Assembly (NCBI RefSeq): GCF_001677475.2
Contig: NZ_CP015229.1
Strand: one strand, 5' to 3'
DNA: 64,000 nt
Source of the DNA: Escherichia coli
Lineage (GTDB): Bacteria > Pseudomonadota > Gammaproteobacteria > Enterobacterales > Enterobacteriaceae
The notes below the pieces were generated by a model that worked only from the letters and a program-made list of their open reading frames with translations, was not told the DNA's origin and made no database searches. Within the stretch, counting starts at the first letter, position 1; every line of letters begins with the position of its first letter. Shown one piece after another: positions 24,945-25,032 of the stretch. Position numbers and translations under genes: made by a program.

Positions 24945-25032
24945 GGTGAGATCGGATGTAATTAACAACAGGTTACAAAACCTACACCTGCATGCTCATC
25001 ACATGAGCATACATTTTTCATAATCGACAAAG
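24945..25032 (-). pseudogene. remnant of a fliE 3' end (encodes ...VMSMQV-stop) adjacent to the integrase-end remnant
   Basis: Reverse complement of acacctgcatgctcat reads M-S-M-Q-V-stop (recalled K-12 FliE C-terminus); imperfect copy of the int/fliE junction at 30206..30275. Confidence 0.6.

Follow-up and report, generated by a model that had tools for sequence, protein, structure and literature searches.

Positions 25003-30274 of the E. coli sequence analysed here (64,000 nucleotides of contig NZ_CP015229.1, referred to as the window) form an insert of 5.27 kb that is very probably a decayed prophage integrated in the last codons of fliE. In the model we propose, the phage integrase (Int), which has an arm-binding and a tyrosine-recombinase domain, would have exchanged strands within a short segment of fliE, CATCA(C). 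The exchange would have joined the body of fliE to a phage-borne imitation of the gene's own terminus, here changing Ser101 to Gly, and would have stranded the host's former terminus at the int-distal junction (24982-25002). The source would have been a lambda-like temperate siphovirus of the CobraSix/IdasGreatGrand kind, and the prophage would afterwards have lost more than 40 kb. The evidence is comparative throughout. The features of the region are as follows.

24782-24960, plus strand: 3' remnant of an intG'-type integrase gene, orthologous to the K-12 intG pseudogene
24904-24944, plus strand: left 41-bp repeat, a conserved stretch coding for the integrase C-terminus, with a candidate arm-type site CCCATCCATGCCCCAC at 24927-24942
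24982-25002, minus strand: K-12-type fliE terminus (VMSMQV-stop), displaced to the int-distal junction
24992-25010: core palindrome, ATGCTCAT (24992-24999), CAC, ATGAGCAT (25003-25010)
24997-25002: crossover segment CATCA(C), left copy (right copy 30269-30274), the only exact identity between attB and attP
25003-25032, plus strand: opening 30 nt of the int-distal phage arm, non-coding and cut off by the insertion sequence
25033-26261, minus strand: IS3-family insertion sequence of 1229 bp within the phage arm
26265-26371, plus strand: remainder of the conserved phage arm (about 110 nt, non-coding), ending in a candidate arm-type site CCCACCCATGCCCCAC (26356-26371)
26428-27018, plus strand: SRAP (YedK-like) gene, truncated and fused to part of a DNA methylase
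27015-27833, minus strand: 272-aa open reading frame
28641-28886, plus strand: excisionase gene, 81 aa (phrog_539, 1.9e-37)
28932-30233, plus strand: integrase gene, a tyrosine recombinase of 433 aa identified by its Pfam domains
30165-30205, plus strand: right 41-bp repeat, inside the 3' end of the resident int, with a candidate arm-type site at 30188-30203
30254-30274, minus strand: fliE terminus contributed by the phage (VMGMQV-stop), at the int-proximal junction, with the same sequence as the attP core of CobraSix, CTAAACTTGCATGCCCATCAC
30254-30568, minus strand: intact fliE, 104 aa, adjoining fliF

The original prediction, made from the letters of the window, was that the minus strand beside the left repeat encodes the K-12 FliE terminus whereas the functional gene ends differently, and both parts were borne out. 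The minus strand at 24982-25002 is GTGATGAGCATGCAGGTGTAG (GTG ATG AGC ATG CAG GTG TAG), which translates to V-M-S-M-Q-V-stop and is of the same type as the C-terminus of K-12 FliE (...QEVMSMQV). The functional gene ends V-M-G-M-Q-V-stop, its last 21 bases reading CTAAACTTGCATGCCCATCAC on the plus strand. The displaced and functional 21-mers agree at 18 of 21 bases, with CATCAC as the exact run. Ser101Gly, which lies inside the replaced segment, is the sole difference between the intact FliE and that of K-12. A degenerate pattern for the fliE terminus matched the window once, at 24982-25002, and none of 100 shuffled sequences contained a match.

The remnant also aligned to its supposed relatives, as the original prediction required of it: window positions 24700-25002 match K-12 (L001, 7421-7721) with 94.7% identity along 303 nt, and 25002/25003 is the exact point at which the homology ends. 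The matching K-12 stretch runs from the intG pseudogene into the 3' end of fliE and breaks off after a Val codon, six codons before the fliE stop. Because this match to the K-12 intG'-fliE junction ends precisely at 25002/25003, we identify the remnant from the alignment as a homologous fliE end and exclude a chance resemblance. On a larger scale, K-12 and the window are collinear from fliD to 25002 (95.1% over 7.7 kb, with a yedN-like gene upstream) and again from 30104 onwards (97.6%). A junction identical to that at 24982-25002, with no insertion sequence beside it, is present in E. coli 30EVA1, HL15 and 63-2 and in the draft assemblies L071-L075. The yedN-like gene itself (23513-24631, minus strand) is an intact 372-aa leucine-rich-repeat/DUF5503 reading frame in the window, with weak similarity to type III secretion effectors of the SspH2/SlrP type; its K-12 counterpart is the yedN pseudogene and its O55:H7 orthologue is annotated as EspR3.

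The integrase fragment to the left of the displaced terminus appears to have a separate history. The corresponding K-12 intG pseudogene is annotated 'cryptic prophage PR-G', and the intG' stretch lies against fliE in 5292 of the 5426 complete E. coli genomes. The left fragment is 79% identical to the 3' end of the resident int. Since the identity is only 79% and intG' is species-wide, the left int 3' end was not copied from the resident island; as judged from these comparisons, it is a fossil left by a phage that used the site before the island arrived. The same history would explain why the stranded terminus is still attached to an int 3' fragment, since the site had, on this evidence, been occupied once before. 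The window was searched for a third, older fliE remnant or a phage arm left by the phage of the intG era, and none was found. These results divide the original claim that the int-3'/fliE-3' junction was duplicated as a unit. The attachment site does overlap the last codons of fliE, but the int-3' copy and the left member of the 41-bp exact repeat belong to the older intG, and the only sequence common to both junctions through the resident integration is the 21-bp terminus.

If the island is a prophage, its two ends would be adjacent in the phage. We therefore searched the phage collection with a joined query of 761 nt, made from the right end (29700-30274) and the IS-less left end (25003-25032 plus 26265-26420). 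The joined ends are one contiguous piece in Enterobacter phage vB_EclS_CobraSix (NC_071003; query positions 1-724 of 761, 94.5%), a virion genome isolated from sewage, and also in Escherichia phage IdasGreatGrand (PP925829; 79.8%). CobraSix carries CTAAACTTGCATGCCCATCAC directly followed by ATGAGCATACATTTTTCATAATCGACAAAG, identical to the joined ends of the window; the identity covers its core and the first 30 nt of its arm. Two metagenomic viral contigs whose Int proteins are 97% (L020) and 95% (L044) identical to that of the window each have a contiguous attP as well, and the attP cores of all four carry the codons for ...MQV-stop. Because the joined ends are contiguous in free phages, the phage itself carries the imitation of the fliE terminus beside int, and the window holds the products of recombination between attP and attB.

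The reciprocal products can be read in E. coli UTAK-1, which carries a prophage of the IdasGreatGrand type. Its int-distal junction is ...GCTCATCAT followed by ATGACC (in longer form, CTACACCTGCATGCTCATCAT followed by ATGACC), and its int-proximal junction is ...GGACATCAC followed by TTCCTG (in longer form, CTACACCTGCATGGACATCAC followed by TTCCTG). The parents with which they were compared are the K-12 attB, ...GCTCATCAC followed by TTCCTG, and an IdasGreatGrand-type attP, ...GGACATCAT followed by ATGACC. UTAK-1 is a clean reciprocal recombinant of the two, and the switch is confined to CATCA, which in the window corresponds to 24997-25001 (left) and 30269-30273 (right). attB and attP have only six exact bases in common; if the overlap were 7 bp long and symmetric about the palindrome, it would include one or two mismatches.

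In all six lysogens examined (the window, 30EVA1, HL15, FLI21, UTAK-1 and OZ040490) the functional fliE has a phage-type terminus at the nucleotide level, and the previous terminus is found at the distal junction. At that level, fliE termini differ between strains with and without the insert and follow the type of phage present, as the original prediction anticipated. Its central proposal, that integration supplies a replacement fliE terminus in the manner of e14 and icd, is upheld by the free-phage attP, by the reciprocal junctions and by the related sites described below. On the same comparisons we attribute the Ser101Gly difference in the FliE of the window to the phage. Displaced fliE termini beside these prophages also encode Gly, in loci with an Enterobacter-type host flank.

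A different origin of the left copy, by ordinary duplication or by homologous recombination between related integrase genes with no site-specific integration, would draw on two int 3' ends that lie 5.26 kb apart in direct orientation and, at 79% overall identity, contain the 41-bp exact stretch. We consider it highly improbable: the left copy is the species-wide intG fossil rather than a copy of the resident int, the homology breaks inside fliE codons and not in int, the joined ends are one piece in free phage genomes, and the UTAK-1 junctions are reciprocal.

Under site-specific integration, the attP of the source phage would span about 240 bp. It would begin with the 3' coding end of int, containing a tandem GCCCCAY motif, and a short AT-rich spacer. 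The 21-bp imitation of the fliE terminus, the CATCA(C) crossover segment and an inverted half-site would follow, and a 137-bp arm ending in the same GCCCCAY motif would complete the site.

The 8-bp inverted copy reported beside the remnant is real (ATGCTCAT-CAC-ATGAGCAT) and extends to 11-nt arms with 91% complementarity. Its left arm is host-derived, from the Met-Ser-Met codons of fliE, and its right arm is phage-derived. As a bare feature the palindrome is not beyond chance: perfect 8-bp inverted repeats separated by 3 nt would be expected 0.74 times in the window and are seen twice, and spacers of 0-10 nt give 38 of them. Its weight therefore comes from its position on the crossover and from its conservation. 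It is centred on the crossover that was mapped independently from UTAK-1. Both sequence types among the six true attP sites, ATGCCCAT/ATGAGCAT and ATGGACAT/ATGACCAT, keep 7/8 complementarity between the arms; what distinguishes the two types is a compensatory change from C:G to G:C, although the right arm does not code for protein. A third type, ATCCCCAT-CAT-ATGAGGAT (L038 and L065), would add a second compensatory change and was left uncounted since its left flank contains neither int nor a recognisable host gene. With moderate confidence, we suggest that the arms are probably core-type half-sites for Int; the match in the window is a perfect 8/8 by chance, the host arm of the K-12 type being an exact complement of the phage arm.

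The palindrome might instead be a functionless by-product, a coincidental pairing between the Met-X-Met codons of FliE, whose plus-strand form is CAT NNN CAT, and the first bases of the phage arm. The abundance of such repeats in the window agrees with this, as does the complementarity at int-distal junctions, which ranges from 5/8 to 8/8 and varies with the host codons. The 3-bp spacer is also shorter than the overlap of tyrosine recombinases, which is usually 6-8 bp. However, coincidence does not readily account for 7/8 complementarity in all six attP sites, with the compensating change falling in a non-coding arm, or for a repeat centred on the mapped crossover. We regard the by-product explanation as possible but somewhat doubtful.

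A second class of putative Int sites is suggested by the motif CCCAYNNATGCCCCAY, of which the window has three copies where 0.10 would be expected. Each copy is on the plus strand and belongs to an att arm: one lies inside each int 3' end and one at the far end of the other arm. In 55 distinct sequences of the phage arm, about 137 nt are conserved, with CCCAYNNATGCCCCAY at their very end and divergent cargo beyond it. Since Int has an arm-binding domain and the motif occupies these positions, we propose the GCCCCAY repeats as candidate arm-type sites. This reading would also account for the 41 bp of identity between int genes that are otherwise only 79% identical. A codon alignment of eight int genes did not tell a dual constraint on the repeat apart from the usual conservation of the 3' third of int: the 3' end has 1.36 distinct codons per column, and several other stretches have 1.29-1.5. 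It is therefore the position of the motif that points to an arm site within the 41-bp repeat. A strict IHF consensus is absent, and a single relaxed match, TATCATTAGGTTA, lies 40 nt from the crossover. As a separate observation, a small inverted repeat capable of forming a hairpin, TTAGGTTA-GG-TAACCTAA, occupies 30240-30257 in the int-fliE spacer and overlaps the fliE stop codon. Its K-12-type equivalent is at about 24971-24984, and an AT-rich tract and the relaxed IHF-like match adjoin the 30240-30257 repeat.

Int matches PF12167 (Arm-DNA-bind_2, 1.5e-24), the N-terminal arm-binding domain, and PF00589 (Phage_integrase, 6.9e-18), both at the level of domains. The excisionase gene has an identical copy in L071, where Pfam DUF1233 (PF06806) is annotated on it. 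The 30EVA1 prophage has a full SRAP gene after the arm, as its first cargo gene beside attP, and then 43 kb of phage genes up to xis; measured against it, only the initial 520 nt and the final 1.6 kb of the prophage are left in the window. The fusion of the truncated SRAP gene to a methylase fragment, which is Dam-like, marks what we interpret from this comparison as an internal deletion of the prophage. The SRAP gene of the window is a phage-borne paralogue of the chromosomal yedK (SRAP peptidase; 22113-22781), 4.3 kb away, with about 78% DNA identity to it. Neither NCBIfam nor PHROGs gave a match to the 272-aa reading frame, and the genomes of 30EVA1 and CobraSix have no equivalent of it. 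The int of the window is absent from complete RefSeq E. coli genomes, where the best match has 84-87% nucleotide identity, and is present in draft assemblies; those with exactly this int hold the same island at 99.9-100% identity and lack the insertion sequence.

The insertion sequence within the arm is an IS3-family element. Its transposase matches NF033516 (4.6e-101), its terminal inverted repeats lie at 25033-25070 and 26224-26261, and it is flanked by a 3-bp target duplication, AAG, at 25030-25032 and 26262-26264. Copies at 99.8-100% identity occur elsewhere on E. coli chromosomes and plasmids. The empty-site allele is found in L071-L073 and L075, and because these drafts are otherwise 99.9-100% identical they confirm the sequence before insertion. 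Positions 25003-25032 are contiguous with 26265 onward in CobraSix, 30EVA1, 63-2, FLI21 and L071-L075. The element starts only 30 bp from the remnant, and one could suppose that its transposition, or a rearrangement that it mediated, made the junction. This too is highly improbable: the target duplication is intact, and the same junction occurs free of the element in 30EVA1, HL15, 63-2 and assemblies otherwise 99.9-100% identical. The insertion is better read as a late event in an already integrated phage arm. int, xis and both junction cores are intact in the island. The insertion sequence parts the core from the distal arm sites, and because it lies 30 bp from the crossover and displaces those sites by 1.2 kb, excision is probably impaired and the island locked in place.

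Elements of this type are rare in E. coli and extend beyond the species. The phage arm was found in only 18 of 5426 complete E. coli genomes. Complete lambdoid prophages of 39-46 kb lie between the same two junctions in 30EVA1, HL15/SF10, UTAK-1, OkiPb01711 and OZ040490; FLI21 has a 12.9-kb remnant with gtrABC, and in 63-2 and six other records the island runs into IS1 and a fliR fragment. A pattern derived from the arm was scanned over IMG/VR and species-representative genomes and matched 41 IMG/VR contigs and 13 representative genomes (five Citrobacter, six Enterobacter, one Lelliottia and one Pseudenterobacter). At 60 of the 61 readable sites in E. coli, IMG/VR and the species representatives, [V/M/I]-M-[G/S]-M-Q-V-stop directly precedes the arm. 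The sole exception is the IMG/VR contig L031, where the arm is preceded by unrelated sequence.

Three loci have peculiarities of their own. In the lineage of 63-2 and its six relatives (L002), the int-distal junction is followed by the first prophage genes (an S24 peptidase and a polymerase-like reading frame) and then by IS1 and the fliR fragment; fliE through most of fliR is deleted, and these strains are predicted to be non-flagellate. E. coli ECCWS199 (L009; also LH10-b-1, LS45 and XH992) carries, elsewhere in the chromosome, an unrecombined fliE-type attP, with int 3' fragment, core and arm, that directly follows the downstream end of an intS-type integrase gene. The arrangement suggests a mosaic prophage in which the integrase was swapped and the old attP kept. 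In OZ040490 (L010/L015) the usual intG' context on the left of the int-distal junction is replaced by an int fragment of the IdasGreatGrand type, with emrE close by on its upstream side, which hints at a further round of serial occupation.

We tentatively extend these observations to a more general proposal, which we judge to have somewhat less than an even chance of being correct. The fliE terminus may be a reusable landing pad, at which each incoming phage overwrites the last five or six codons. The C-terminal codons of E. coli FliE would then be phage-derived and fixed before the species diversified; given intG' against fliE in 5292 of 5426 genomes, this would apply to nearly all E. coli. 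The Ser/Gly polymorphism at residue 101 in Enterobacteriaceae would be driven by phage traffic and not by selection on the flagellum. Independently of this proposal, the comparisons show that integration can alter one residue of a flagellar rod protein. They also account for a small puzzle in the annotation of E. coli genomes: the orphan intG pseudogene beside fliE and the extra fliE-like fragments are scars left by a family of lambda-like phages for which the end of fliE serves as attB. The precise attB/attP pair could be used to call prophage boundaries in Escherichia, Enterobacter, Citrobacter and their relatives.

Prior mention of the site is slight. A table in a Cronobacter pan-genome paper lists fliE as a prophage insertion locus in Cronobacter malonaticus, another genus of Enterobacteriaceae, and gives no att site, terminus replacement or phage family for that prophage (PMC3680222). 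In the open-access full text that was searched, we found neither an account of fliE serving as a phage attB in E. coli or Enterobacter nor any paper on CobraSix or IdasGreatGrand.

Within E. coli a close comparison is K-12 intG/PR-G, whose int fragment, spacer and fliE terminus are orthologous to those on the left of the window (94.7%). In K-12 they stand directly against fliE and still form the int-proximal junction, whereas in the window a second integration has parted intG' from fliE. CobraSix and IdasGreatGrand have the int-xis-attP module in common with the window, but are complete 48-kb virion genomes, compared with a 4-kb remnant plus the insertion sequence here.

The proposed attP resembles that of lambda in its length of about 240 bp, its repeated motifs on both arms, its short core and its putative inverted half-sites, and it is likewise served by a heterobivalent tyrosine integrase with an arm-binding domain and an adjacent xis. 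It differs in that the arm and core sites of the window are candidates and that one arm overlaps the coding end of int; the core is also only about 20 bp away from the stop codon of int and falls within a host gene instead of between genes.

The mechanistic parallel is provided by e14 and phage 21, which integrate into icd of E. coli K-12. There too attB is in the 3' end of a protein-coding gene, the diverged substitute end brought by the element keeps the gene intact, and the original end is left as a pseudo-fragment at the far junction. The event in the window is an ordinary, well-understood one of this kind with no new mechanism, at a site for which only passing mention was found. It differs in scale, since about 165 bp of icd are replaced compared with only 21 bp of fliE (six codons and the stop), in its integrase, which is not that of e14, and in that the fliE site shows two successive occupations.
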